A DNA stretch of 64,000 nucleotides from an uncultured Alphaproteobacteria bacterium (GCA_944393215.1 CALXZL010000001.1:11718-75717); one strand, 5' to 3'. Positions 7,984 to 22,130 are shown, counted from the stretch's first letter. Translations and numbers: made by a program. Notes: generated by a model not told the origin, from the sequence alone.

Positions 7984-8151
7984 GGACTATATCCACCTTA
8001 ATAAAAAAATTAAACACTTCAGAGCCAATCATCCACGACAAACCGTTCGGACAACAAAGCTCCGACTAATGTGGCAAACATATTAAATAATTTCAGAGAT
8101 GTCAACAACTATATTGCCGCTATAAGCAAATAAAATAAGCAAAATATTCCT

Positions 8152-8358
8152 TCAGAGCTTAAACAACTTTTTAATAAGAGAAAAAAGGCTGATAGTTGTG
8201 CGATTATATATCCGATTATAAAGAGCTTTTTTAGGATTGGTCAACCACCCCCAGCCACGCGGTGCTTTCAAACCCAAATTATGCCGAATAATACGTTTGA
8301 CGGAAGTTCTTGCTCCGATCATCTTGTTTAAAGACGGCTTTCTGACACCAAATTTCAT
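8152..8358 (-). CDS. small basic hypothetical protein
   Basis: 68 aa, Lys/Arg-rich, good AGGAG RBS 8 nt upstream. Confidence 0.45.
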   Translation of the reverse strand: MKFGVRKPSLNKMIGARTSVKRIIRHNLGLKAPRGWGWLTNPKKALYNRIYNRTTISLFSLIKKLFKL

Positions 8359-8437
8359 ACATATAACTCCTAAAAAATTTTTGACATTTATAAAAATATT
8401 TATAATATCAAAGTTGCTAAATTAATAATTAACGCTC

Positions 8438-8474
8438 ATCCCCCACGAAAAAAAACTTTTCGTGGGGTTTTTCT
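8438..8474. terminator. rho-independent terminator
   Basis: CCCCACGAAAAaaaaCTTTTCGTGGGGTTTTT. Confidence 0.65.
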
Positions 8475-8495
8475 TTATTGTCAATTATATTGAAG

Positions 8496-9098
8496 TCAAT
8501 CGGGAAGCTGTCCGTCGTGTGCCTTCCACTGACAATCTAAAATTGCCATATTGGTAAATAAGGCTGTAAAAGAAGAGCCTTCCGGACTACAAGCATATAT
8601 TCCGAATTTTATCTTATTATCTGCTTTATTTAGATGACAAATTCGCATTTGTTTAAAATGCATTCCATCTACAGAATTTTCTATACAAAAATCATTATTC
8701 CGGCGGCTCAAACGATACCACATTGATTTTACATTTGCATCAATTTCGGTTGTTGCCCAATCAGAATAGCCTTCATTTGTAACCACACTGCCCAAATGTT
8801 GCATCACCTCATTTTCATATTCTATTGAGGCTTTAAGCCAATTTTCACTATCCAAATAAACCACAACACCACATTGGTCAAAGCGATGCTTACTGTTAAA
8901 TTCGGTTTTAACAACAAATGAAAAAAATTTTTCCTCCGTTTCCATTTGCAAAACCGGAGCATTATCATTTTGAAAATTGTAATAAGTTCTTTGCCATAAA
9001 TCTGTATGCGGGGTTGTTACGATCTCAATTTTTTCATCAGAAATAAGATATGCTTTCGGCTCCCTTGTCCAAACCAGTTGATTTGATGTGAATTTCAT
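8496..9098 (-). CDS. DUF1349-like (concanavalin-like fold) hypothetical protein
   Basis: N-terminal pattern WTREP…TDLWQRTYYNFQNDNAP resembles DUF1349; assignment from memory only. Confidence 0.45.
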   Translation of the reverse strand: MKFTSNQLVWTREPKAYLISDEKIEIVTTPHTDLWQRTYYNFQNDNAPVLQMETEEKFFSFVVKTEFNSKHRFDQCGVVVYLDSENWLKASIEYENEVMQHLGSVVTNEGYSDWATTEIDANVKSMWYRLSRRNNDFCIENSVDGMHFKQMRICHLNKADNKIKFGIYACSPEGSSFTALFTNMAILDCQWKAHDGQLPD

Positions 9099-9247
9099 AC
9101 CTTTGTCTCCTTATCGCAATTCTTTAAATGCCTACCGCAACATTCTTAATATTGTACTAATTACAAGCCCTTATCGAGCGGTTCTTTTATTTGCAGGAGA
9201 TATAGGATAATATACGAACTAATACAGATGACACTAACTAATAATTC

Positions 9248-9643
9248 TCATTTTTGCTCCTGCTTTTTCCATTTATAAAATGCCGCAATCAAAGAAACAA
9301 AAACCGCAAAGAACCACAAATCGGCTAAGTTTAAAATTATATTTAGGAATAAGCTTTCATCAAATCTAAAAGCAACAAAAGTAGCGCTAATAAAAACAAA
9401 CAAAATGATAACGGCATAAGGTATCCAACCGATAGAACACATATAAAAAGAAAACTTAGGATATTTATTTGAAATATAGGGAATAAATTTTGGAATCTTA
9501 TTAAAACAAAGCATTAATGCAAAAACAATAAACAATACAAACAAAATATCTGGAATAAAATCCAAAGGGAGTAAAGAAGAAAGAACATCTAAAACACTAT
9601 ACAAACCACCCAGCAAAAGGGCTTCCTTTGACCACAATTTCAT
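9248..9643 (-). CDS. integral membrane hypothetical protein
   Basis: 131 aa with 3-4 hydrophobic helices. Confidence 0.4.
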   Translation of the reverse strand: MKLWSKEALLLGGLYSVLDVLSSLLPLDFIPDILFVLFIVFALMLCFNKIPKFIPYISNKYPKFSFYMCSIGWIPYAVIILFVFISATFVAFRFDESLFLNIILNLADLWFFAVFVSLIAAFYKWKKQEQK

Positions 9644-9691
9644 TGTTCGTTCTCCTTTCGAATCAATACGAATAGAATAATCTTTATTTCT

Positions 9692-9979
9692 TTATTTTTT
9701 CTTACGGTTAATACAACTTTCTTTATAAGCATTAATACCATGAGCAATATAAGCCCCAACCATAGAACTTTGATTTAAACGTTTAACTATAGAACCTACA
9801 ACAGGTATTTTTGTTACTAATGATTTATCTGCAATGGAAGAACCAGAAGAAATTGGCTTAGAAACAGATGCATCTTTTTTTATTTTTATAAAGTTTTTAA
9901 CCACCCCTTTTACAGAACAATCACTATTATAACGAGATTTGGCTTTCATTGACAAAGAATTTTGTTTTGTGTAGTCCAT
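9692..9979 (-). CDS. hypothetical protein
   Basis: 95-aa Lys/Ser-rich ORF. Confidence 0.3.
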   Translation of the reverse strand: MDYTKQNSLSMKAKSRYNSDCSVKGVVKNFIKIKKDASVSKPISSGSSIADKSLVTKIPVVGSIVKRLNQSSMVGAYIAHGINAYKESCINRKKK

Positions 9980-10080
9980 ATAACAAGCGGGAACTGATGT
10001 CTATAACAACACCTTACACGGGCTCTATTAACTTATTGATTTATAATAAAAAAGACGCATTAAAGCGTCTTTATCTTGAG

Positions 10081-10156
10081 TGGCAGGGGCAGTAAGATTC
10101 GAACTCACGACATTCGGTTTTGGAGACCGACGCTCTACCAACTGAGCTATACCCCT
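10081..10156 (-). tRNA. trnW: tRNA-Trp (anticodon CCA)
   Basis: 76-nt cloverleaf AGGGGTATAGCTCAGTTGGTAGAGCGTCGGTCTCCAAAACC…CTGCCCCTGCCA; anticodon loop CT-CCA-AA; encoded CCA. Confidence 0.9.
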
Positions 10157-10162
10157 ATCAAA
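10116..10162. repeat. attL-type 47-bp direct repeat (tRNA-Trp 5' half plus 7 nt)
   Basis: GGTTTTGGAGACCGACGCTCTACCAACTGAGCTATACCCCTATCAAA, identical to 19267..19313. Confidence 0.85.
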
Positions 10163-10521
10163 ACTTTCTTACCTATAACGTATTCTAAAATATAAATCAA
10201 GTATTTTTTTCTATCCCTTGCAAACAATGGTGTTTTGGCTCTTTGCAAACAAAATATATCTACTTAATTCCAAAGAAAAAACTTTACATTTTCAGATATT
10301 AAAATTTTTAATTTTACCTATCTATAATTTTTTCCCTTTTTTATCCCTAAACCTCCTAAAAATACAAAATTCATATATTTTTTTTGTTTTTTAAAGAACC
10401 TCATTTGCATCATTAGCCTCATTAGCTTTCGGGCTTTTTCCGCCCCACACCCAATTTTCGCGCCCTTTCCCCAAAATGTCCACACTTATTAGGCTAACTA
10501 TTTGAAATTGTGGATAGTTTT

Positions 10522-11154
10522 TCAATGGAGATTATTATCACTCTGTTTCTTTTTTAATTCAAAATTAAATATTTTAATCTCTTCATAGTATGGCAATACA
10601 TATAATAAAATCATTATTAAAATTAAATAGAGGTGAATGTTATTTAAATTTAAGATCTCCAAAACATCTAATACAAATATAATTGATAAAACTTCTAATA
10701 AGATATTAATTTTCTTCTTAAATTCATCTACTGTTTCTACCTTTTTTGTTTTTATTATTTCTGTCTTTGCTGAACGACTACGAACAATTTGATCTTGGTA
10801 GTTTAAATCAAAATTATCTTTTTTTGTACTTTCAGTTTCCGGATTTATTATTTTAAAAAAAGGTGAATTATCATTAGGAAAAACTAAATACCCAATAACA
10901 TCAGCATTTAACTTGCGAGCCTCTTGTAAAAATTTGCTTAATTGTTGCCTTCCCATGTCGACATTTCTTTTATTATTATTAGACTTTAATTCAAATAACT
11001 GCATTGGGGAATTTGTTTCTATATCAATTACCACAAGATCTGCTCTATATTTTCCCAATTTATATTCTGCAATCATACTATTCTCAGGATATCCATGCCT
11101 AATTAAATATTGCTTCAAATTTTCAATCAAATTTTTTTCAACAAGAAGGCTCAT
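10522..11154 (-). CDS. restriction-endonuclease-fold (HsdR N-terminal-like PD-(D/E)xK) protein with C-terminal transmembrane helix
   Basis: N-terminal …GYPENSMIAEYKLGKYRADLVVIDIETNSPMQLFELK (D…E.K motif; resembles the type I HsdR N-terminal domain); C-terminal strongly hydrophobic segment IIFVLDVLEILNLNNIHLYLILIMILLYVL. Confidence 0.5.
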   Translation of the reverse strand: MSLLVEKNLIENLKQYLIRHGYPENSMIAEYKLGKYRADLVVIDIETNSPMQLFELKSNNNKRNVDMGRQQLSKFLQEARKLNADVIGYLVFPNDNSPFFKIINPETESTKKDNFDLNYQDQIVRSRSAKTEIIKTKKVETVDEFKKKINILLEVLSIIFVLDVLEILNLNNIHLYLILIMILLYVLPYYEEIKIFNFELKKKQSDNNLH

Positions 11155-11169
11155 TTTTATTTCCTTTAT

Positions 11170-13182
11170 CTAATTCAATCCAAGAATCCTGAAAAATACT
11201 TCATTTTTCTTTCTTGCGTCATTAAACATCTTTTCATACGTAATAATTTCTAATGAAACTATACATCCTTCTAAAGGATGGTATTTAAAAAAGCCATCAC
11301 CATCTGGAGACTTTTGATAACCAGCAACATCTATTAAATCTGCCTCTATCTTAGGGGTTATATCTGTTACAATATATCCATATAAACGCGTAGAACCATT
11401 AATTTTTATTGGTCGTCCTCTAGAATCAATAGCATTTCCTGAAATTATTTCTTTCATATTTCTAATAATCTCTCGATGAGGATTATAATCCTCCGAAAAA
11501 TTATTCAATCCAGGCTTTTTAAACTCCACTACAGTTATAGAATTTTTGTACTGAAAATCATCCGTATATTTTAATGGTTTATTAAAAATTGTAATATCTG
11601 GTCTTCTTGAAGATGAAGCTTGTAATTCTTTATAATTTTTTATAAGTTCGTCAGAATACAAGGCTTCATGAAAGACTAACTTTTCATCCAACAACCAAAG
11701 ATTATTAGCCTCAAATTCAACAGAATTTGAATTAATTTTCATCGGAATAATAAGCTCATGCAGATAAGCTTCATCTAAAAATTTATTTTCTTCCTTATTA
11801 AATGATATTAGCTGTTCAAACACATCCAATAAAGCTTTTCTATGACAAATATAATTTGACAATTCACAAGTATTAATTCCACTCGATTTTGCTATATATT
11901 TTTTCATAGCATCATCATAAGTTTGTTTAGTCTTTTCATTTAATTTAGTAGATTTTTTTAGCTTATTTCTTAATGCCAACAATTCTTTTTCTTCTTGAAA
12001 CTTTAGATTATGAAGAAATAGCTCCATAGTCTGCATATTAGGATTATTAGGAAGTTTATCAAAAGGAAATTTTTTAGATTTTATACGCTCTATAAAAATT
12101 CTATATCCAGGCTTGTAATTATTTACATATTCAATTAATTTTTCTTTTTTCTTATCTGTAGACTTCTCTAAATAATCAGATAATTCGTTTTTGACTACAT
12201 CTAGACATTTTGCACGTATTTGTGAAAAAGATGGATTCGCTGAATCAAAAAAATCACCATTTTCATCATAATCTTCGGGAATGCTAAATTCCATTTGATT
12301 CGGTTGAATATTTTCATCAAGGTACAAACTGCTTACTATTAAATTATAGTAATAACTATCCTTATCGTCTTTAATTTTTCCATTTAATGTCTCAATATTT
12401 TTTCCAATATTTTCACTAATTATTACTCTGCGATTAGAAGTGTATGCAATTATATTTCTTGTTTCAGTTTCATATAATCTAATACTAATAGTATTAAAGC
12501 TAAAATCTCCTATTGTAAAATTCGATACTTTTTTATCTGATGTGTAGTATTTTTGATACAAATCATTAAGATTTAAACTTTCTTTATTATCTGAAATAGT
12601 AATTGTTGGACAATTGCTTCCCATAAAAAACAACAAACAATGCTCTATAATTAAATGAGCAATTTTAGATAACTCTTGAGGAAAAACTGCTTTATAGGGA
12701 TCTTGGATATTGTGTAAAGATATTACTGTTTTATTTTCACCAAAATTTACATCCTGCACAACTTCATCTAATTCATCCTTTGTTCGTAAAAAATCAAAAG
12801 ATATTTCTTTCTTGCCATTGTTATATATACTATCAACAGACACATGATTAAATACTTTCAACCATGAAAATCTTCCTAACCCTTTGCATCCCTTCGATAT
12901 TTTATGCGTACTATCAAATTTTTTAAAAGAACCAAAATTTTCTTCATTAAACCCTATACCGTTATCAATAATTTTAATGTTTTGAATTTTGGAGACAAAA
13001 TCGTTATTAAGAACTTCTTCTCGCTCGATAATAATATGAATGTATGGAGATTTATTATTCTTCATATCTTCAAGAGATTGAAGGGAATTAACAACAGCCT
13101 CAAACAAAGCATATATCCCTTTTGTTTTGGGCAAATATGTATTTCTTAACTTACCAGCTATATCACCATTAAAAGCAGACAT
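11170..13182 (-). CDS. GHKL-superfamily ATPase (HATPase_c-like) with possible C-terminal PD-(D/E)xK-like region
   Basis: N-terminal Bergerat-fold motifs (ALFEAVVNSLQ…, IKIIDNGIGFNEENF, GCKGLGRFSWLKVF); C-terminal RRPDITIFNK…ITVVEFKKPG resembles a D…E.K nuclease motif; 16 nt upstream of 10522..11154 on the same strand. Confidence 0.55.
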   Translation of the reverse strand: MSAFNGDIAGKLRNTYLPKTKGIYALFEAVVNSLQSLEDMKNNKSPYIHIIIEREEVLNNDFVSKIQNIKIIDNGIGFNEENFGSFKKFDSTHKISKGCKGLGRFSWLKVFNHVSVDSIYNNGKKEISFDFLRTKDELDEVVQDVNFGENKTVISLHNIQDPYKAVFPQELSKIAHLIIEHCLLFFMGSNCPTITISDNKESLNLNDLYQKYYTSDKKVSNFTIGDFSFNTISIRLYETETRNIIAYTSNRRVIISENIGKNIETLNGKIKDDKDSYYYNLIVSSLYLDENIQPNQMEFSIPEDYDENGDFFDSANPSFSQIRAKCLDVVKNELSDYLEKSTDKKKEKLIEYVNNYKPGYRIFIERIKSKKFPFDKLPNNPNMQTMELFLHNLKFQEEKELLALRNKLKKSTKLNEKTKQTYDDAMKKYIAKSSGINTCELSNYICHRKALLDVFEQLISFNKEENKFLDEAYLHELIIPMKINSNSVEFEANNLWLLDEKLVFHEALYSDELIKNYKELQASSSRRPDITIFNKPLKYTDDFQYKNSITVVEFKKPGLNNFSEDYNPHREIIRNMKEIISGNAIDSRGRPIKINGSTRLYGYIVTDITPKIEADLIDVAGYQKSPDGDGFFKYHPLEGCIVSLEIITYEKMFNDARKKNEVFFRILGLN

Positions 13183-13296
13183 ATCTTCATCCTATAATAT
13201 TAAGCTACTTTTAGTTTTATCTTAAATTTTAGTCTTTGCAAATACAAAATATCTTTTCTAAGACATTTAGTTTTAACATCAAAAAATCAACTTTCT

Positions 13297-13644
13297 CTAA
13301 ACCAACTCTAAAAGAGCTTCAATTTGTTTTTGGATAACTTGTAGGGTTTTATTGTCCTGTTTTTTAAGAATTTGAAGAATCTCTAAAATATTGTTGGCTA
13401 CTTCGTCTTCTGTTGGATTCTCTTGAGATTCTGAAAAAAGTTCTTCAATAGAAGTATTAAGTGCATTTGAAATTGATACCAGAGTCGAAATTTTAGGATC
13501 ACTTAAACCACGTTCAATATTAGAAATCGTGTTTATCATTTTACCAGAAGCCTCCGCAAAATCTTCTTGGCTCATTCCTTGTTGTTTTCTTAAATAGGCT
13601 ATTCGTCTGCCTAAATTTTTTAGCATTTGAGTTGTTTCATCCAT
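13297..13644 (-). CDS. XRE-family HTH transcriptional regulator
   Basis: LRKQQGMSQEDFAEASGKMINTISNIERG helix-turn-helix. Confidence 0.75.
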   Translation of the reverse strand: MDETTQMLKNLGRRIAYLRKQQGMSQEDFAEASGKMINTISNIERGLSDPKISTLVSISNALNTSIEELFSESQENPTEDEVANNILEILQILKKQDNKTLQVIQKQIEALLELV

Positions 13645-13790
13645 TTTACACCTCTAATTATTATTTATTTTCACATTAGAGTGTGTAAAACGCCATGATA
13701 GTTAACTGTGTTTTTTGTACCTAAATTTAATTGACTCGCTACACAATACACATTAAAATGTGTGTAAATTTATTTTACTAACATTGAGGT

Positions 13791-14738
13791 GTGGCTATGG
13801 AACAACCTAACATATTTGATTTTGCAACTAGCGAATTATCACAAGATGCTTTTATTTGTTACTTATTAGAATTTGGAAAAGAGAAGTATAAAGACATTTT
13901 TCCAAATGAATATGCAATTGCTCATTTATTTTTCGAAAAAAGTGGACTTACTCAAACAGAAGAACTTTCAGAAATAAAACAACAATACCATGGTATAGAC
14001 GTTTTAGTCATTACATCCAATTCTCTATTAATTATTGAAGATAAAACAAATACTTCAGAACATTCAGATCAGATTATTAGGTATGTAAAAACATTAAAAA
14101 AAGATAATTTATCAAAAGGCAGAAAGATTAAAGTCTGTTATTTAAAAACAAGTAATTATGTACGTGGATATACATCTTCAGATATTACACTACTACCTCA
14201 AGAAGATTGTATTTCTATCAACAGACAAAAGTTTATGGAAATATTGAATTACAAAAAAACAAACAATTTAATATTCCAAAGTTTTTATCTTCGACTTAAG
14301 TCAATGAATGAACTTGCAAAATCTTGTGATACAAAAGACATTTTCAGTTGGAATAAAGAAAAATGGTTTGAATATCTCTTAAATCAATTTGCAGAATATC
14401 CAAAATACTATGACATTGCTTGGGTAAACAATCCCAAAGGTGGATTTTATGGTTGTTGGTTTGATTTTCTTAGTATTGGAAAAGTTGATATATATAAACA
14501 AATAGAAATTTATTTTTCAGAGAATAAAACATCAAACATAAAACTATGCAGAAAACTATTAAGCTCCAGTAGAGATGAGACCATAAAAAACAAAGAATTA
14601 ATAACAAAGTTACAAAACCAATTGCTAGACAAAGGATACACTCCTTCTAATAGAACCGGAAAGACAACAACATATGCTTATAAAAGAGCATCTTGTTTAG
14701 ATGATGTTTTACAGTTTATACAAGAAAATTTGGAATAA
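13791..14738 (+). CDS. PD-(D/E)xK nuclease family protein (PDDEXK_4-like)
   Basis: N-terminal NIFDF…SELSQDAFICYLL and HGIDVLVITSNSLLIIEDKTN…QIIRY match the pattern of the PF14281-type restriction-endonuclease-like family; transcribed divergently from the XRE gene. Confidence 0.5.
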   Translation: MAMEQPNIFDFATSELSQDAFICYLLEFGKEKYKDIFPNEYAIAHLFFEKSGLTQTEELSEIKQQYHGIDVLVITSNSLLIIEDKTNTSEHSDQIIRYVKTLKKDNLSKGRKIKVCYLKTSNYVRGYTSSDITLLPQEDCISINRQKFMEILNYKKTNNLIFQSFYLRLKSMNELAKSCDTKDIFSWNKEKWFEYLLNQFAEYPKYYDIAWVNNPKGGFYGCWFDFLSIGKVDIYKQIEIYFSENKTSNIKLCRKLLSSSRDETIKNKELITKLQNQLLDKGYTPSNRTGKTTTYAYKRASCLDDVLQFIQENLE

Positions 14739-14758
14739 CAATCAAGAAAGGACGGAAT

Positions 14759-15013
14759 ATGATATATAATTTATCTGATGCCTCTGGCAATATTCAAACT
14801 TACCCCCACATTATCCAAGGTACAGTAACTATTATCAGAGAACCCATTAAAGGAACTATGCTTTTTCCAACAGGTTCTTCGGGAATGGAATTATTAAAAT
14901 GTGATGAGAAATTTATTTATATGAGAGATCCTTATAATTCATCTAATGTAAATGTGTTTGACGAAGATGGATATAAGGTTAGAGATATTTCAATTAATGA
15001 ATTAAACTTTTAA
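14759..15013 (+). CDS. small hypothetical protein
   Basis: 84-aa ORF 20 nt downstream of 13791..14738. Confidence 0.35.
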   Translation: MIYNLSDASGNIQTYPHIIQGTVTIIREPIKGTMLFPTGSSGMELLKCDEKFIYMRDPYNSSNVNVFDEDGYKVRDISINELNF

Positions 15014-15059
15014 TATTGTATAAAGTAGGGCTAACAACAGTAGCCCTACTTTTTCTTTT

Positions 15060-17399
15060 CTACAAATTCTCTAAATTATAAACTTCAGGATTTACATAAT
15101 AAGTTTTACGCCTTCTACCCGCGGTTTTCCCTGCTCTTGAAGATCCGCAACTTAACCAACCTAAATCCATAAGTTTATTTGCAGCAATTTGAACTTGTTC
15201 TTTCCTTCGCAAGTTTGCAATATTTCCATTATTATATATATCTCGTAGGGTAAAGCTACATAGCTTATTTTCAATAATGTATCTTGCCAAAGAACGAGCC
15301 TCAATATTTTGAGATGGACTGTAATACATATTATATACCCGTTCACACATTGGCGTTATGTATGTATCATATAATTCAATTGCTGTTTTAATCGCCTCAA
15401 GACTTATCTCTGTTGGTTCGCTATATTCTGAACTTGCCCACCATAACATCTCAAACAGTAAAGCAAAACGCAATACATAACCTTGACCTTTACCAAGGAA
15501 ATATTTCAAAATACTTTCCTCACTCTGTGATTTATTTAAATGTGCTAGATACCAAGTATTAAAAAGCTGTTGAGCCTCAATACTTAACAACAAGCATTTC
15601 TTCTGTTTCTCAGCATTATCTACATATGGATTTAATAGAGAATCAAGTTTTTCGAATGCTGGCAATACTTTTTCCGGTAAAGCAATATCTTGAGGAATAG
15701 AAGCCGGTTTAGGCTCCGGATAGACCCATAGAAAGCGCGCAAGGAAGCCGTCCCCGCGGTCAGAAAGAACCGTGTCAATGAGCCTTTGAGGCTGTATAGT
15801 CCCGAAAACAGAAACAAGCAAATTTTGAATTTCTTGCCGTTCATCATCAAATTTAACACGATTACAAACAAATTTATTGCCATTAAACGCTTCAAGCCAA
15901 AACCCCTTTTCTGAACTACCACTATTATAGCGATTCATTCCACTAATCCAAGCGGATAATTCATCTCGAAAGAGTATTGCCCCTTTAATATTTCTTTCCA
16001 TATCTGAGGTTAATGCCTCTTGAGTGGTATCTCCATAAACAAAACGATATGTTTGAGGTTTTGGAGGCACAACAGCGGAAGCTGGAAATTTAGGTGCTAA
16101 ATCAGGAGCTTCTTTTACTTTATCCTCCCACTCTTTTCTTCTTTGTTTTGCAACTTCCTTTTCAGTCTTCCACTTTGCTAATTTATCAGAATAATCTTCC
16201 TTTCGAGCTTCCTCAATTTTGTTAAGAATTTTCCGAATTGGTGTTGTTGCTGGTGTTTTACCTGAACTTGGCTCTCCAATTACACCAATCCACAAACAAC
16301 ATTTTTCTTCCCAAGTTCCCCAAGGCGAGATACTTCGAGACAAACCAATAACACCTGCGGCACCAGCAAGCAAAGAAAATGCAACATAATCAATCGGAGC
16401 ATTCGTATTTTCTGCCGTTTGAACAACCCAATCTTCTAAATTTTTAAATATTTTTGTATTTAATATTGGAGCAGGTAAAAGGATTTTTGTTTTCAAAATA
16501 TCCATATCCGGCTCAATATCATCCCAATCGTTACAATGTTCTTCAACAAATTTTAAGGCGTTATCATAAGTTTTTAACGATTCTTCTTTTGATAAACCTG
16601 AACGAATAGCCGCACCAATAACACGCTCTTTTATATCTGTCATATTTGCTTTTTCATGTTTAGCACGCTTTATAAGGCTGATAGAACGCCTATAAAGCGT
16701 ATCGTTGCGTTGTCCTTGCGGTGCGTTTGAAATATCTTCCAGAAAGCCTGAAATAGGCAAAGTCTGTTTTTCCTCATTCGTAAGCAAAGAAAGCAACCAA
16801 CTTGGAGCCTGTGGGAAATCCTGATTTATATCAAAATTTTCCCAAGTATATTGATGTCCATTTTCATGAATGGAAGGAGGTGCAACGACATAACCACCAT
16901 TAGCTCTTATATCAATATGATCGGCAATTTTGCTAACACTCGACTTAATGTCTATATTTTCCGGCATTTTGAAATATAAATGTTTTCCCTTTCCTGTTAT
17001 AACAGTTGGTACATCTAATTTTCCATAAAGACGTTCTAAACACTCTAAAGATTGAAGACCTTGTTCGCCATCAACATCCAAAACAAAGATATTATTAAGC
17101 TGTCCGGTTGGAATACCGATATTACAATCAAAGAATTTTTTATTCCATTCTTGTAAAATGGCTGTATCAACAGTTGCCGACTTAAAGCCTCCTACGCAAA
17201 GAGGTGATTTTCCTTGCTTTTTTACAGGAAATACTTTAATATTTCTGCTTGTATAAAACATAGCAACATCATAGAAATTGCGAGTTTCCAAGATTTTGTT
17301 TATGTTTTGAGAAGATATTGCAGTATCTTCTCGTTTTGGGAGTGAAGAGGCTTGCGCCTCTCTCTCCTGTTTTTCAATCAAAATGTTTTTTAGTTTCAT
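15060..17399 (-). CDS. bifunctional primase-polymerase (Prim-Pol) / P-loop helicase-like replication protein
   Basis: N-terminal Prim-Pol motifs (VLDVDGEQG…, GKGKHLYF, IDIRANGGYVVAPPSIH); central P-loop GEPSSGKT (DUF3987/D5-like NTPase), 779 aa. Confidence 0.7.
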   Translation of the reverse strand: MKLKNILIEKQEREAQASSLPKREDTAISSQNINKILETRNFYDVAMFYTSRNIKVFPVKKQGKSPLCVGGFKSATVDTAILQEWNKKFFDCNIGIPTGQLNNIFVLDVDGEQGLQSLECLERLYGKLDVPTVITGKGKHLYFKMPENIDIKSSVSKIADHIDIRANGGYVVAPPSIHENGHQYTWENFDINQDFPQAPSWLLSLLTNEEKQTLPISGFLEDISNAPQGQRNDTLYRRSISLIKRAKHEKANMTDIKERVIGAAIRSGLSKEESLKTYDNALKFVEEHCNDWDDIEPDMDILKTKILLPAPILNTKIFKNLEDWVVQTAENTNAPIDYVAFSLLAGAAGVIGLSRSISPWGTWEEKCCLWIGVIGEPSSGKTPATTPIRKILNKIEEARKEDYSDKLAKWKTEKEVAKQRRKEWEDKVKEAPDLAPKFPASAVVPPKPQTYRFVYGDTTQEALTSDMERNIKGAILFRDELSAWISGMNRYNSGSSEKGFWLEAFNGNKFVCNRVKFDDERQEIQNLLVSVFGTIQPQRLIDTVLSDRGDGFLARFLWVYPEPKPASIPQDIALPEKVLPAFEKLDSLLNPYVDNAEKQKKCLLLSIEAQQLFNTWYLAHLNKSQSEESILKYFLGKGQGYVLRFALLFEMLWWASSEYSEPTEISLEAIKTAIELYDTYITPMCERVYNMYYSPSQNIEARSLARYIIENKLCSFTLRDIYNNGNIANLRRKEQVQIAANKLMDLGWLSCGSSRAGKTAGRRRKTYYVNPEVYNLENL

Positions 17400-17818
17400 T
17401 TTGTTTCTCCATTATTTTGTTTATAACTAAATCCTTTGGGATAAATTGAATTAGCTTGCTCTTTTTTCAGCTCCTCTAATTCATTTTGAGCTTTCTCAAT
17501 TTCTAGCCTTGGCTTATCGCAACAAACATACCGTAAAAATGCAATAGCCTCCTTCGTTTCATATAAGACTTGATTGTTAATAGGATTGTGAAAAGAATTT
17601 TTTATTCCCTCATTTCTTGAATCAAGATTTTTCAAAGTATGTGCATTGAGAGGTGTAATCTCACAAAGCTTTACTCGACTAATTAATGGAGCATAGGCTA
17701 TAATTTTCTGCTCATATTGCTTTAAAAATTTTTCCGGTAATGGTTGAGGTAATCTCTCAATTTTCGCAACCAATTTTGCTATTTTTTGCGCTGTCGTTTT
17801 TTGTCTAAAACTCGTCAT
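17396..17818 (-). CDS. hypothetical protein, possible AlpA/Xis-like DNA-binding protein
   Basis: 140 aa, lies between integrase and primase as in P4-type elements; weak HTH-like segment RVKLCEITPLNAHTLKNL. Confidence 0.35.
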   Translation of the reverse strand: MTSFRQKTTAQKIAKLVAKIERLPQPLPEKFLKQYEQKIIAYAPLISRVKLCEITPLNAHTLKNLDSRNEGIKNSFHNPINNQVLYETKEAIAFLRYVCCDKPRLEIEKAQNELEELKKEQANSIYPKGFSYKQNNGETK

Positions 17819-17960
17819 ACTTTTTCTCCTTTATGGCTTGTTAAAGACAATAAAGTCGATTCCGATTTCCAACTTTAACAACGCATTGTTTTTGCTTAAA
17901 AAAATCATCAAAGCAATAAACGCATAAAAATAGACAAAATAATATTTTATACAATAATAT

Positions 17961-19091
17961 TTAGCTGTTTAACTTAGAAACTGCTTCGCGTAATGTTTCA
18001 TTTGCCAAATGCGAGTAACGTTGTGTCATGGCAATATCAGAATGCCCTAACAATTCTTTCACTTCATAAAGGGAAACTCGTTTTTGAACTAAACGACTGG
18101 CAAAAGTATGCCGCAAAGAATGAAAAACTACCTTTTGTCGACGGTCGATAATACCATCATTTAAACCTAAAGTTTTAACTACTCTCTCAAAAGTTCTTGA
18201 AACATGCTCAATCTTTCCACCGTTTTTACTTTGGAATACAAATTCATTTCCCTCGCCCGGCTTTAATTTTGATATTTCCTCAAACACACGATTTGTCATA
18301 TAGGCAAAACGATTTTTGCCATTTTTGGTATCACGCAAAAATAACATTTTTTCTTCAAGGCTAACATCTGCCCAAGTTAACTTAAAAATCTCTCCAGCTC
18401 TTAATCCGCAATCTGCAGAAATTAATGCCATTAAATAAACGGAGTAGCTATGTTCCTTGAGTTTTTCAAAAAGATTATTTAACTCTTCTTCGGAAAGAAA
18501 TCTCATACGACGATTATCTTCTCTTTTTAACTCGTCGAATTTTGCTGCCGGATTATCGCCTGCAAAAAGCTCATTTCTTATAGCAAAATTAAAAACTTGC
18601 CGAATTAAAGCTATAGCATAAAATTTTGAACGATTAGATAAATGCTTTTTTTCCATAGGCTGTAGTAACCTTATGAGGCTAACGCGGCTAATGAGGTTTA
18701 ATCTAACACCACCTAAAAACGGCTTAATCCACTTTTTATATAAATGGACTTCCCTATCATAAGTTGATTTTTTATCTTTATTTTGAATATGAGGCTGATA
18801 ATATTCTTCAAATAATTCTGAAAATGTTATATTTGCTGCCTCATTAGCTATTTTTTCTTGTTCGCGTTGTTCGTTCTTTTCTCTCAAAGAAAAAGCCCTA
18901 CCAGCCTTTATATCTCTCTTAAGTTCGCCTAAAATTTCATATGCTTGAGCCGCTGTAAATCCTTCTGATTTATAGCCTATACTTTCTTCATATTGTTTAC
19001 CATTGCGAGTGTAGCGAACAGAAAAATAAACATCTTTTCTGCCATTGCGAATACATTCTTTAGAACGTACACCAGGAAAACTCTTTACCAT
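17961..19091 (-). CDS. int: tyrosine-type site-specific integrase
   Basis: C-terminal catalytic HSLRHTFASRL…LLGHSDIAMTQRYSHL (R-H-R-Y motifs), 376 aa, next to the attR repeat. Confidence 0.9.
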   Translation of the reverse strand: MVKSFPGVRSKECIRNGRKDVYFSVRYTRNGKQYEESIGYKSEGFTAAQAYEILGELKRDIKAGRAFSLREKNEQREQEKIANEAANITFSELFEEYYQPHIQNKDKKSTYDREVHLYKKWIKPFLGGVRLNLISRVSLIRLLQPMEKKHLSNRSKFYAIALIRQVFNFAIRNELFAGDNPAAKFDELKREDNRRMRFLSEEELNNLFEKLKEHSYSVYLMALISADCGLRAGEIFKLTWADVSLEEKMLFLRDTKNGKNRFAYMTNRVFEEISKLKPGEGNEFVFQSKNGGKIEHVSRTFERVVKTLGLNDGIIDRRQKVVFHSLRHTFASRLVQKRVSLYEVKELLGHSDIAMTQRYSHLANETLREAVSKLNS

Positions 19092-19266
19092 TTTACAAAA
19101 TTCCTTCTTATCGGTTTCTTTACCCTAATTATTACCTAAAGAGACGGAAAAAACGAGTACACCTAAGTACGCTAAGGTACGCCAAGCAAAAAAAACTTTT
19201 ACGCTTGAATGTATTGAAAACTAACTAAAATGTAGGGAAATTAAATACTTTGAAAAATTAATCTGG

Positions 19267-19313
19267 GGTTTTGGAGACCGACGCTCTACCAACTGAGCTA
19301 TACCCCTATCAAA
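19267..19313. repeat. attR-type 47-bp direct repeat (displaced tRNA-Trp 5' half)
   Basis: Identical to 10116..10162; lacks the tRNA 3' half. Confidence 0.85.
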
Positions 19314-19415
19314 TCTTGCGTAATATTAGATACACAACTATTCACTATAAATCAAGTCTTTTTTTATTATTCAGCAAAAAAGTTCATAAAAAAAGCGGAC
19401 TTTAATCCGCCTTTA

Positions 19416-20081
19416 TTAAAACGCCATAACAATTCTCGCAACCAATTTTTCATCTGTTTTTACGCAGAGCCCTTCAACAGCATAAGGAAAACCTATCGAA
19501 CGTTGCCTCCACTGATTGCTCTCTGTTGACGATACTACCCATCCTTTCAAAATCGGAGCTTTTATAGCCTTCAAAGAATTATTAATAATATCAAGATTTT
19601 TTGCAATTTTAATCAACTGATTGATTGCCGGAACAAATACCTTCTTCCCTGTCCTTTTAGTGTAATTTTTACACCATTCAAACAAAGGAAAAGAAATCCC
19701 TCTATTCAAAGAAACTTGCTCACATTTATCAGTGTTTTCTTCCCCATTATCACTATCGGAAATATTCGTTAAACATTTTTTTGTTTGCCATACTTCCTTC
19801 AATTCATCCCGCAAAAGTATCAAACCACGAGAACCTTTTAGTGCATTTTTATTTGGATTAATCCATGCAACTACACCTAATAAATCTGAATATGCATTTT
19901 TATCAGGAGAAAACTTTCCATTAACAAAAGCATACCAACCGACTTTCACATCGGGGAATGCCGTTTGAGAATAATTCTCAATAATTTTTTCTGTCACAGA
20001 AGATAATTCCGTAACCGTAATCTTCTTTTCTTTTAACAAATCAAGAAGATAATTTTCTAACTTTTCCACTTCTCCAGTCAT
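19416..20081 (-). CDS. hypothetical protein
   Basis: 221-aa ORF between tuf and the island boundary; no family recognised. Confidence 0.4.
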   Translation of the reverse strand: MTGEVEKLENYLLDLLKEKKITVTELSSVTEKIIENYSQTAFPDVKVGWYAFVNGKFSPDKNAYSDLLGVVAWINPNKNALKGSRGLILLRDELKEVWQTKKCLTNISDSDNGEENTDKCEQVSLNRGISFPLFEWCKNYTKRTGKKVFVPAINQLIKIAKNLDIINNSLKAIKAPILKGWVVSSTESNQWRQRSIGFPYAVEGLCVKTDEKLVARIVMAF

Positions 20082-20261
20082 AATTTTATAATAATTTTAT
20101 TTATATTCGATAATATAACATATTTATACAAAAATACAACTAAAAACATCTCAAAGACACGCGCTCGAAACTCTCCACAAGGCACTTATAGAAACTCGAT
20201 AATTGAGATGAGTAGAAGCGTTTTTTAACATACTTGAGTTTGGATAGCGTGTGTAAATAGA

Positions 20262-20495
20262 GTAATTTCTAGTGGCGAGAAAAATCCTAGTGTACAAACA
20301 GGTACATGAATTTTTCCCTTTTCGAAATTTTTGCTCTAGATGAGCTGTTATATGTGTTCTAAATCCTAAAAGCTCAAGATTTGGAGATTATAGCGTGAAA
20401 AACAAAGCGGTCGAAATTCTAGTGTACAAGTAGTACATGAATTTCGACCGTTCTGTAGTTTTTTGCGCTAGAAGCCCAAATACTGAGCTTTTAGA
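20262..20495. repeat. diverged ~130-bp tandem duplication downstream of tuf, each copy carrying a TGTACA-N-GTACA palindrome
   Basis: Copy 1 ctagTGTACAaacagGTACATGaattt at 20287..20313; copy 2 ctagTGTACAagtaGTACATGaattt at 20419..20444; flanks also align. Confidence 0.6.
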
Positions 20496-21686
20496 CTACT
20501 TCAAGATTTTTGATACCACACCTGCACCTACAGTGTGTCCACCTTCACGAATAGCAAAACGCAAACCTTCGTTCATGGCAATCGGGTGAATCAATTTTGC
20601 TGTCATGCGAATGTTATCGCCGGGCATTACCATTTCTGTACCTTCAGGCAATTCAATTGCACCGGTCACATCGGTGGTACGGAAATAGAATTGAGGACGA
20701 TAGTTAGAGAAGAACGGAGTATGACGTCCACCTTCTTCTTTGGTCAAAATGTAGCATTCGCAAGTGAAGTCTGTGTGCGGCGTAATGGTGCCGGGAGCTG
20801 CCAATACTTGTCCACGTTCAACTTCTTCTCTCTTGGTTCCGCGGAGCAATACACCGATGTTATCGCCGGCTTCACCTTCATCCAACAATTTGCGGAACAT
20901 TTCAATACCGGTACAGGTGGTTTTTTGTGTCGGACGGATACCTACGATTTCGATATCATCACCTACGTGCAATACACCTCTTTCTACACGACCAGTAACA
21001 ACTGTACCACGACCGGAGATTGAGAATACGTCTTCAATCGGCATCAAGAACGGTTGATCTTTCGGACGTTCCGGTTGCGGAATGTAGCTGTCTACGGCTT
21101 TCATCAATTCAACAATTGAATCGTGACCGATTTTCGGATCGCCGTTTTCCAATACTGCCAATGCAGAACCTTTGATGATTGGGATTTCGTCACCCGGGAA
21201 GTCATATGAGCTCAACAAGTCTCTGATTTCCATTTCAACCAAGTCCAACAATTCAGGATCGTCTACTTGGTCTACTTTGTTCATATATACAACCAATGCC
21301 GGAACGCCTACTTGACGAGCAAGCAAGATGTGTTCACGGGTTTGCGGCATCGGACCGTCTGCTGCGGATACGACCAAGATTGCTCCATCCATTTGCGCAG
21401 CACCGGTAATCATGTTTTTAACATAGTCAGCGTGGCCCGGGCAGTCTACGTGTGCATAGTGACGATTCGGAGTTTCATATTCTACGTGTGAAGTAGAAAT
21501 GGTAATTCCGCGAGCTTTCTCTTCAGGTGCTTTATCAATTTGATCATATGCTGTGAAGCTTGCACCGCCTTCTTCTGCCAATACTTTTGTAATGGCGGCG
21601 GTCAAAGTGGTTTTACCATGGTCTACGTGACCGATAGTTCCAATGTTGCAGTGAGGCTTTGTGCGCTCAAATTTCTCTTTTGCCAT
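20496..21686 (-). CDS. tuf: elongation factor Tu
   Basis: 396 aa; [21 protein letters not shown] GTPase motifs; near-complete EF-Tu. Confidence 0.98.
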
Positions 21687-21739
21687 ATTAACAGATCCTA
21701 ATTGTTTATGTTGTTAGAACGATTCGGTAAGAGAGAAAT

Positions 21740-21813
21740 TGGAGCGGGTGAGGGGAATCGAACCCCCGTCATAAGCTTGGAAGGCTTCTGCTCTACCATT
21801 GAGCTACACCCGC
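21740..21813 (-). tRNA. tRNA-Gly (anticodon UCC)
   Basis: GCGGGTGTAGCTCAATGGTAGAGCAGAAGCCTTCCAAGC…CACCCGCTCCA; anticodon loop CT-TCC-AA. Confidence 0.85.
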
Positions 21814-21846
21814 TTTATTCGCCTCTTATCGAGAGTTAACCTAAAA

Positions 21847-21932
21847 TGGTGGAGGGGGATGGATTCGAACCATCGTAGACGAAAGTCGACGGATTTACAG
21901 TCCGTTGCATTTGACCGCTCTGCCACCCCTCC
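21847..21932 (-). tRNA. tRNA-Tyr (anticodon GUA)
   Basis: GGAGGGGTGGCAGAGCGGTCAAATGCAACGGACTGTAAATCC… long variable arm …CCCCCTCCACCA. Confidence 0.85.
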
Positions 21933-22130
21933 ATTTTGATTAAAATTTCAGGTTGGGAGGAAAGTTTCCTCCGAGATAATCACTGATAGGCAAGTATCCT
22001 TATTTTAAGCCATTTGTCAACACCTTTTTTCACAAAACAAAAAAAATAATTTTTATCTGTGAATAATATTTGTTACCAACTGTTAACTGATTAAGGCTAA
22101 TATATGCAAAAACAGATAAGGAAACCGAAC

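Follow-up and report, generated by a model that had tools for sequence, protein, structure and literature searches.

The locus considered here lies in a 64,000-nt stretch of DNA from an uncultured Alphaproteobacteria bacterium (GCA_944393215.1 CALXZL010000001.1:11718-75717; the whole stretch is called the window, and positions are counted from its first letter), where two copies of the 5′ half of a tRNA-Trp gene are found, only one of them within an intact gene. The question raised is what the DNA between both copies is and how the gene was rebuilt at one of its ends, an earlier sequence-only reading having proposed a recent, P4-like integrative element inserted in tRNA-Trp. Positions 10163-19313 very probably represent one copy of a site-specific integrative element of 9,151 bp (equivalently, 9,104 unique bp plus one 47-nt repeat), acting through the mechanism set out below. 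A repeat search of positions 8000-22000 gave one outstanding direct repeat family (10116-10171 and 19267-19322), whose exact part, read from the sequence, was 47 nt long (10116-10162 and 19267-19313), in agreement with the earlier reading. This 47-mer is far beyond chance, because the next-best repeats in the 14-kb region reached only 19-37 nt with 67-84% identity. On the tRNA strand, it was composed of six leader nucleotides (TTTGAT) followed by tRNA positions 1-41, these being the 5′ half, the anticodon loop CTCCAAA and the ACC of the 3′ anticodon-stem arm; the repeated tRNA-Trp 5′ half had been correctly recognized, while the flank of 7 nt given with it had to be shortened to six. The intact gene appeared at the secE-proximal end and the orphan 5′ half (19267-19307) at the distal end, 176 nt upstream of the tyrosine integrase gene (int, with a Phage_integrase match), an arrangement that had also been described from the sequence alone. 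The features that define the locus are the following:

10081..10156, minus strand: intact tRNA-Trp(CCA), detected by ARAGORN and by Rfam (tRNA score of 70.3 bits), with the same sequence as in the empty-site contigs

10116..10162, minus strand: attR copy of the 47-nt identity block, six leader nucleotides plus tRNA positions 1-41

19267..19313, minus strand: attL copy of the block, that is, the displaced chromosomal 5′ half (19267-19307) plus six leader nucleotides

Contigs from other metagenomes (designated here by L numbers, as are more distant relatives) were retrieved through an exact match to the 221-aa protein whose gene lies between tuf and the orphan half. In L001, L002, L004 and L006, the 221-aa gene was followed by an intact tRNA-Trp and then by the DNA found after the tRNA in the window, the 9 kb being absent and the flanks being 98-99.5% identical to the window over 6-9 kb. 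L008 had the identical 221-aa gene and an intact tRNA-Trp with no copy of the element, another integrase appearing just past the tRNA 3′ end. The element itself was carried at 100% identity by L003/L009 and was matched by L010 at 100% over 5.7 kb, and its copies in L007 and L011 were 97.5% identical to that of the window. The attB site was read from L002, L006 and L001 in a junction alignment, in which attL consisted of host promoter, tRNA positions 1-41 and element, and attR of element, tRNA positions 1-41 and host tRNA positions 42-76. Thus, in the window, the chromosome contributes the 3′ part of the tRNA (10081-10115) and the element contributes positions 1-41 (10116-10156) within its copy of the repeat, and the rebuilt gene has the sequence of the uninterrupted tRNA in the empty-site contigs; no second tRNA-Trp 3′ fragment was found elsewhere in the window. 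Moreover, the junctions were reproduced in independent assemblies from other samples (L003/L009, L007, L011 and L005), so the repeats are no assembly artefact. Given the conspecific empty sites and the presence of the same element in independent assemblies, one of them with swapped cargo, this is a genuine, polymorphic integrative element that has been recently mobile in an uncultured gut-associated alphaproteobacterium. Both the recent insertion proposed from the sequence alone and its polymorphism are borne out by the empty sites, which also exclude an ancient, fixed insert with diverged repeats. The locus has the traits by which the Islander survey defines islands in tRNA genes (tDNAs): a full tDNA and a cognate fragment of the same orientation bracket the interval, a gene for an integrase of the tyrosine recombinase type lies within it, the 5′ fragment precedes the intact gene when read on the tRNA strand (a configuration allowed there), and an uninterrupted attB exists in related genomes (L001, L002, L004 and L006).

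Two candidate signs of other forms of the element were discarded. The ends of contig L184 share 18 nt, as might be expected of a circle; they lie exactly 30 nt inside the repeat (k−1 for k = 31), so the overlap is a de Bruijn break and not a circle. The break between L005 and L010, from one sample, was considered as a mixture of alleles, and both proved to be of the attL type, with a 55-nt overlap across the attL junction. As a side observation, the hybrid formed at attL (19233-19307, minus strand) scored 32.1 bits with the Rfam tRNA model, whose gathering threshold is 29, and its counterpart in L181 (9784-9859) scored 30.5 bits, both being helped by a partial acceptor-stem complement (UUUCCCU), while ARAGORN made no tRNA call at the hybrid. 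Annotation pipelines could therefore report a spurious second tRNA-Trp at this site.

The G+C content was 0.25-0.38 within the element vs. 0.34-0.47 in its flanks. Starting from the integrase end, the following genes were found:

17961..19091, minus strand: tyrosine integrase (Int), 376 aa (Phage_integrase, E = 1.1e-31, and SAM_3; phrog_1, E = 8e-71)

17396..17818, minus strand: 140-aa protein, candidate DNA-binding regulator or recombination directionality factor

15060..17399, minus strand: 779-aa protein with a Prim-Pol domain (archaeo-eukaryotic primase, AEP) and a DUF3987/YfjI helicase-like domain (E = 9.5e-39 and 4.6e-60, respectively)

14759..15013, plus strand: 84-aa open reading frame (ORF), kept in most relatives

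13791..14738, plus strand: PD-(D/E)XK_4 protein, 315 aa (PDDEXK_4, E = 1.6e-6), kept in most relatives

13297..13644, minus strand: XRE-family HTH regulator, 115 aa (HTH_3, E = 1.4e-16; phrog_8), syntenic in most family members examined

11170..13182, minus strand: 670-aa GHKL-type ATPase-like protein (cargo; Pfam match below cut-off)

10522..11154, minus strand: 210-aa protein (cargo) with a hydrophobic tail and a restriction-endonuclease-fold Pfam match below cut-off

Only generic, sub-threshold Xer-like matches were obtained for Int in an NCBIfam scan. The 140-aa protein had no Pfam, PHROG or NCBIfam match, and its AlphaFold2 model (predicted local distance difference test of 79) presented a strand-helix-helix-wing core flanked by long helices. 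Searches of the PDB with the sequences of the 140-aa and 670-aa proteins returned no significant match. The Prim-Pol/DUF3987 protein is likely the replicase of the excised circle.

According to the proposed mechanism, the integrase would recombine a circular form of the element with the chromosomal tRNA-Trp gene, the crossover most probably falling in the 7-nt anticodon loop, where both arms of the anticodon stem would serve as inverted core sites. In contrast with the usual case, it is the upstream side of the gene that the deduced attP carries, with tRNA positions 1-41 preceded by the leader and a promoter-like sequence; it joins 10163-10215 (reverse complement), the 47-mer and 19220-19266 (reverse complement). 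In the integrated state, the functional tRNA-Trp is composed of the promoter-like region and 5′ half of the element joined to the chromosomal 3′ half, and the original promoter and 5′ half stand 9.15 kb away, beside int. As far as the gene content indicates, replication of the excised circle would fall to the Prim-Pol/DUF3987 protein, and the XRE and the 140-aa winged-helix-like proteins may control the switch and the excision. Exchangeable cargo, probably anti-phage defence genes, occupies a defined slot that separates the int-distal arm from the XRE gene.

The promoter-like sequences on both sides are central to this mechanism, and they were located as follows:

10172..10210, minus strand: element-borne promoter-like region for the rebuilt tRNA, recognized by its conservation

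19327..19365, minus strand: native tRNA-Trp promoter-like region, the same in the empty-site contigs

The element-borne region had an A-tract (T-run at 10203-10209 on the plus strand), a −35 TTGATT (10195-10200), a 17-nt spacer and a −10-like TATAGG (10172-10177), giving the arrangement AAAAAAATACTTGATT-17 nt-TATAGG-15 nt-tRNA. Likewise, the native region had an A-tract, a −35 TTGATT (19350-19355) and a −10-like TATCTA (19327-19332), arranged as AAAAAAAGACTTGATT-17 nt-TATCTA-19 nt-tRNA. The pattern of A-tract, (C)TTGATT, 16-17 nt and TATnnn was found upstream of all native (5/5) and all element-borne (3/3) tRNA-Trp copies compared, from five host species, and this conservation argues for promoter activity of the element-borne region. 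Furthermore, in the carrier the native tRNA promoter is now directed towards the orphan half and, past that, towards int, since tRNA and int are co-oriented in the elements of the Trp type. It was also observed that the element-borne upstream region of L013 (~19365-19417) is nearly the same as the native one of another host species, L012 (~9735-9786), which suggests that elements pick up or exchange promoter DNA with their hosts. In L095, a canonical hairpin with a T9 terminator (9876-9898) was seen between the displaced tRNA-Trp 5′ half and int, in the place where read-through from the native promoter would enter int. In the window, no terminator was called in the corresponding interval, and the RNA fold of this P arm was no better than those of shuffled sequences (z of 0.26).

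More than 2,000 integrase homologues were found, the closest of them in metagenome-assembled genomes from gut and rumen labelled as Alphaproteobacteria. The backbone formed by int, the small ORF, the Prim-Pol/DUF3987 gene, the PD-(D/E)XK gene on the opposite strand and the XRE gene was largely kept among relatives whose integrases were 61-88% identical to that of the window. A total of five elements were of the Trp type (window, L181, L183, L013 and L095), with integrases mutually 74-88% identical and with the displaced 5′ half adjoining int. In all five, the identity block ended at tRNA position 41 (...CTCCAAAACC), while its left end varied from one to six leader nucleotides. The classical arrangement was found at tRNA-His in the sister elements L092 and L185, with integrases 62-69% identical to those of the Trp clade, and in L186, which branches more deeply: there the tRNA runs antisense to int, which is adjoined by a displaced 3′ fragment of 48-57 nt extending from the CCA end to the anticodon loop, where the identity block ends. 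In a neighbour-joining tree, the Trp clade was sister to the 3′-type tRNA-His elements L092 and L185. Moreover, an antisense tRNA T-arm was present at most 450 nt upstream of int in 31 of the 72 relatives, and a sense D-arm in the Trp clade only. The core read on the int strand was YCGGT-CTCCAAA-ACC/CMARAT for the Trp type and CCGGT-ACCACAA-ACC/CAAAAT for the His type (L092); the stem arms CGGT/ACCG are identical on either strand, and the int-proximal half-site is common to both types.

From these comparisons, with sister integrases of 58-69% identity, the 5′-half geometry appears to derive from an ancestor of the classical 3′-half type that targeted tRNA-His, with the same core in use and the near-palindromic anticodon stem apparently read in the opposite sense. 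In the simplest reading, the Trp clade would have kept the core and the arm orientation and taken a tRNA lying the opposite way, so that restoration would be forced from the 5′ side. Outside this clade, a different arrangement was observed in L098 (integrase 62% identical; 9632-9716 and 17269-17315), in which the tRNA-His is antisense and the intact tRNA adjoins int, a 5′ half with a promoter-like sequence (TTGACT-17-GAAAAT) stands on the int-proximal arm, and the native promoter (TTGACA-17-TAAAAT) and 5′ half have been displaced to the far end. It is a second, independent 5′-side solution within the same integrase family, with the opposite arm layout. A bolder proposal, which we consider rather improbable, is that the integrase clade represents a natural series of re-targeting, in which the core CCGGT-N7-ACC-CAAAAT was kept and the near-palindromic anticodon stem came to be read oppositely, passing from tRNA-His (3′) to tRNA-Trp (5′ plus promoter). 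If so, promoters would be exchanged as well: the tRNA-type promoter of the element would face int in the circle, while after insertion it would drive the host tRNA-Trp and the host tRNA promoter would face int, so that int expression and tRNA supply would each depend on the promoter of the other partner.

Repeated motifs were found in both arms of the deduced attP and within int:

10163..10521, minus strand: int-distal arm (P′ arm), 97.8% identical in L007 despite the cargo swap

10397..10428, minus strand: three 9-bp units (GCTAATGAG GCTAATGAT GCAAATGAG) in the int-distal arm

18667..18698, plus strand: the 3 × 9-bp motif again, inverted, within the int ORF (codons ~131-141, NLISRVSLIR)

19155..19185, minus strand: three GYGTAC units of the int-proximal arm, at exact 10-bp intervals; candidates for arm-type or operator sites

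The int-distal arm also contained blocks conserved in L013 and L095. The copy of the GCTAATGAG-like motif within int encodes a tripeptide-repeat-like xIS-RxS-LIx, and the motif pair was noted in the window, L013, L095, L181, L183, L092 and L185. It was the best inverted match between int and the distal arm in eight out of ten family members (24-29 of 30 nt vs. background maxima of 21-24). Since the match in the window itself reached 24/30 vs. a background maximum of 23, it is the conserved position that makes the case for the motif. The middle unit is a variant (GCTTTTGAG) in both copies of L013, whose Int reads SLKS instead of SRVS, while no such co-variation of both copies was found in L183. 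The motif may possibly correspond to protein-binding iterons or an origin, arm sites, antisense RNA pairing or gene conversion; under the re-targeting proposal, it could belong to the control of promoter exchange or to a replication origin. In the int-proximal arm, the GYGTAC units stand immediately upstream of int at a distance of ~90-120 nt from the core, and were also present in L181, L183, L013 and the His-type L186. Compared with the lambda-type (heterobivalent) layout, in which arm-type Int-binding repeats stand on both attP arms, the arm repeats are GYGTAC (×3) in the int-proximal arm only and a different 9-bp motif (×3) in the distal arm, while distant relatives have the same tandem motif in both arms.

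The cargo of the element occupies a precise position:

10522..13182, minus strand: cargo module with the 670-aa and 210-aa genes

The exchangeable slot begins at 10522 and reaches the XRE stop codon (13297), as the backbone of L007 matched that of the window up to this stop codon and then again over the last 362 nt (10163-10521). In L007, the two genes of the window were replaced by the PADLOC candidate defence pair PDC-M19A/B (E = 4e-105 and 7e-101). Likewise, the slot was filled by a type IIG restriction-modification enzyme in L092, by CTD9, MC5 and AAA_23 proteins in L181, and by GIY-YIG and AAA_21 proteins in L183. The family of the 670-aa protein is widespread and uniform in length, and is annotated just as ATP-binding protein. 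In Chryseobacterium (L187, 3218-14025), a homologue was found between hsdS and a 978-aa reverse transcriptase in a type I restriction-modification operon, and in Rhizobium (L188/L189, 6001-13267) upstream of two unknown ORFs and a gene encoding a reverse transcriptase-trypsin protein. These homologues constitute an unannotated, defence-island-associated protein family. A defence role of the cargo in the window is thus suggested by its position and associations, and the pair of a GHKL ATPase and a nuclease-like protein is a reasonable candidate for a new defence system.

A number of results weigh against the interpretation given above. No relaxase, packaging or capsid genes were present among the genes of the element. 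The fold of the 140-aa protein had no significant match, the top Foldseek results being MarR-type winged-helix proteins, all of them with E > 0.1. The 670-aa and 210-aa proteins had no PADLOC match and only sub-threshold Pfam matches. Neither the element-borne nor the native tRNA promoter was called in a generic sigma-70 scan, both being missed because their −10 elements have no final T. No counterpart of the GYGTAC units was found in the int-distal arm of the window. Besides, the position of the crossover is inferred from the conserved boundary and by analogy with anticodon-centred sites. Finally, the exact 67-nt attP pattern expected of an excised circle gave zero matches in the viral_contigs and metagenome_contigs collections, a null result that is uninformative, since the ENA samples with the element are outside both of them.

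Different explanations of the interval were weighed against the site-specific integrative element. A true phage satellite of the P4 or phage-inducible chromosomal island (PICI) kind, excised and replicated upon induction by a helper phage, packaged in helper capsids and with cargo that defends the host as in P4 hotspots, would agree with the size of ~9 kb, with a general satellite layout in the order of integrase, small DNA-binding gene, primase-helicase, repressor and defence cargo, and with the annotation of DUF3987 as YfjI family. However, PHROG matches were confined to the integrase, the HTH regulator and the primase/helicase, with no terS, capsid, scaffold, psu, sid or delta, no cos or pac site was identified (no search with a cos model was made), and IMG/VR held no close relative (none for the Prim-Pol, and integrases of at most 44% identity on contigs of ~40 kb). 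The 140-aa protein did match a small terminase chain very weakly (6hn7_B, E = 0.34), but this is not significant and the fold search favours MarR-type winged helices, so that a satellite is considered unlikely. The integrative mobilizable alternative, a ‘minimal hitcher’ with only an origin of transfer that borrows relaxase and pilus from a co-resident conjugative element, looks doubtful as well. It would account for the appearance of related elements in several hosts and of 97.5-100% identical copies across samples despite the lack of self-transfer genes, and for the well-conserved, non-coding int-distal arm with its repeats, and a 2026 preprint (10.64898/2026.01.13.699239) reportedly argues that many islands move in this manner; yet neither a relaxase nor a recognisable oriT was found (no search aimed at oriT was made), and satellites and small plasmid-like islands are where a dedicated Prim-Pol/helicase replicase is more usually seen.

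Much less probable still is an old insertion that became fixed in the lineage and now decays there as an immobile remnant. The failure to detect an attP circle would suit it, but the interval is present or absent among contigs with 98-99.96% identical flanks, its repeats match exactly, no backbone ORF is disrupted and all of them are conserved in relatives with 58-88% identical integrases, and the cargo was swapped between backbones of 97.5% identity. An assembly artefact or chimera as the cause of both repeats and insert is scarcely credible, although the source is metagenomic and the contigs L005, L010 and L184 break at the repeat: both junctions were found in L003/L009, L007 and L011, from different samples and assemblers, and the ends of L184 (30 nt inside the repeat) and the 55-nt overlap of L005/L010 are what k-mer scaffold ends would give.

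The integrative element reading places the locus among systems already known. In the Islander survey, 3,760 islands had a 3′ tDNA fragment and 159 a 5′ one (159/3,919, 4%) (PMC4383910), in line with the earlier remark that the duplication of the 5′ half is uncommon, and the norm is a 30-45-bp common core including the tRNA 3′ half (PMC10865867). Thus, the 5′ geometry is uncommon yet documented, and the element is of a familiar kind. With the tDNA islands of that survey (PMC4383910), it shares the internal tyrosine integrase and the full tDNA and same-orientation fragment at its ends, and, with those having anticodon-centred att sites, an identity block that ends at the anticodon loop and the restoration of the gene; it differs in belonging to the 5′-fragment minority, a geometry because of which it must also bring transcription signals. 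No description of a promoter-bearing attP arm, or of the origin of the 5′ geometry, was found in the literature searched.

P4-like islands insert in tRNA or tmRNA genes; P4 itself uses the 3′ end of leuX, its Int has an N-terminal DUF4102 arm-binding domain, and YfjI sits in the E. coli island CP4-57. With P4 and P4-like islands (e.g. CP4-57, intA-alpA-yfjI), the element has in common its small size and insertion in a tRNA gene, the variable defence slot, the DUF3987/YfjI domain and the order of int, a small DNA-binding gene and a large primase/helicase-type replicase. This P4 order, proposed in the sequence-only reading, is present, while further likeness to P4 did not hold up: Int had no DUF4102 at E ≤ 0.01 (only Phage_integrase and SAM_3 in Pfam), the replicase combines an AEP Prim-Pol with DUF3987 and is not of the alpha type, no phage record covered at least 80% of it, no psu, sid, delta or epsilon was found in a PHROG scan of eight element proteins, and the crossover would fall in the anticodon loop, the gene being restored from its 5′ end. 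As for the PICIs, the element resembles them in its integrase, repressor, primase/replicase module, accessory cargo and size of ~10 kb, but has no terS, capsid-morphogenesis or packaging-interference genes (Pfam and PHROG), and its repressor does not adjoin int.

The tycheposons of Prochlorococcus and other marine bacteria (bioRxiv 10.1101/2020.12.28.424599) also present tRNA-specific tyrosine recombinases whose clades track their tRNA targets, partial tRNAs at the island edge, modules of xis, primase/helicase and regulator, and exchangeable cargo. They differ in host lineage and apparently in integrase family, and their cargo serves nutrient acquisition, whereas that of the element looks defensive. 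Finally, the tRNA-dependent lysogeny of actinobacteriophages (PMC10865867) also departs from the rule of restoration by a 3′ half in attP, but these phages carry a whole replacement tRNA gene and rebuild nothing, while the element rebuilds the gene precisely from the 5′ side.

Regarding the surroundings of the element, the clean tuf/tRNA-Trp/secE cluster that had been assumed as its target did not stand, as a 221-aa ORF lies between tuf and tRNA-Trp in all strains and ~1.7 kb of strain-variable DNA separates tRNA-Trp from secE (window ~8234-9960). This segment contains ORFs for a 95-aa protein, a 131-aa membrane protein and a 200-aa DUF1349-like protein; it is missing in L002 and L006, and in L001 and L004 part of it is replaced (531-aa dsrm-like and 149-aa DUF1349 proteins). 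It was considered as a second island with a 3′ tRNA fragment at its edge and rejected, no such fragment being present in the window. A terminator-like hairpin was found directly 3′ of tRNA-Trp (10051-10072, minus strand), and it also appears in the empty-site contigs, so tRNA-Trp is probably its own transcription unit, apart from secE. Some strains have a different sequence immediately 3′ of the CCA end of tRNA-Trp, and in L008 (4573-5897) it leads into the N-terminus of an integrase with DUF6538 and SAM_3, starting just past the tRNA 3′ end. Different elements apparently make use of the tRNA-Trp gene from its two sides, and in L007 (9447-9469) both sides are perhaps occupied at once.

Current understanding is not overturned by this element, which provides a fully bracketed case of the rare 5′-side integration into a tRNA gene, with attB, attL, attR and a deduced attP, and with both alleles in one species. 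The case illustrates what a 5′-side element must carry, namely a promoter-like sequence and the 5′ half of the gene. It is of use to att-site prediction, where the tools mostly expect 3′ fragments, and to annotation, as the orphan half scores above the Rfam threshold. Together with its relatives, the element suggests a simple route by which integrases may switch tRNA target and orientation, and it defines a family of small, putatively replicative islands in uncultured gut Alphaproteobacteria, with a precise slot for known and candidate defence systems.

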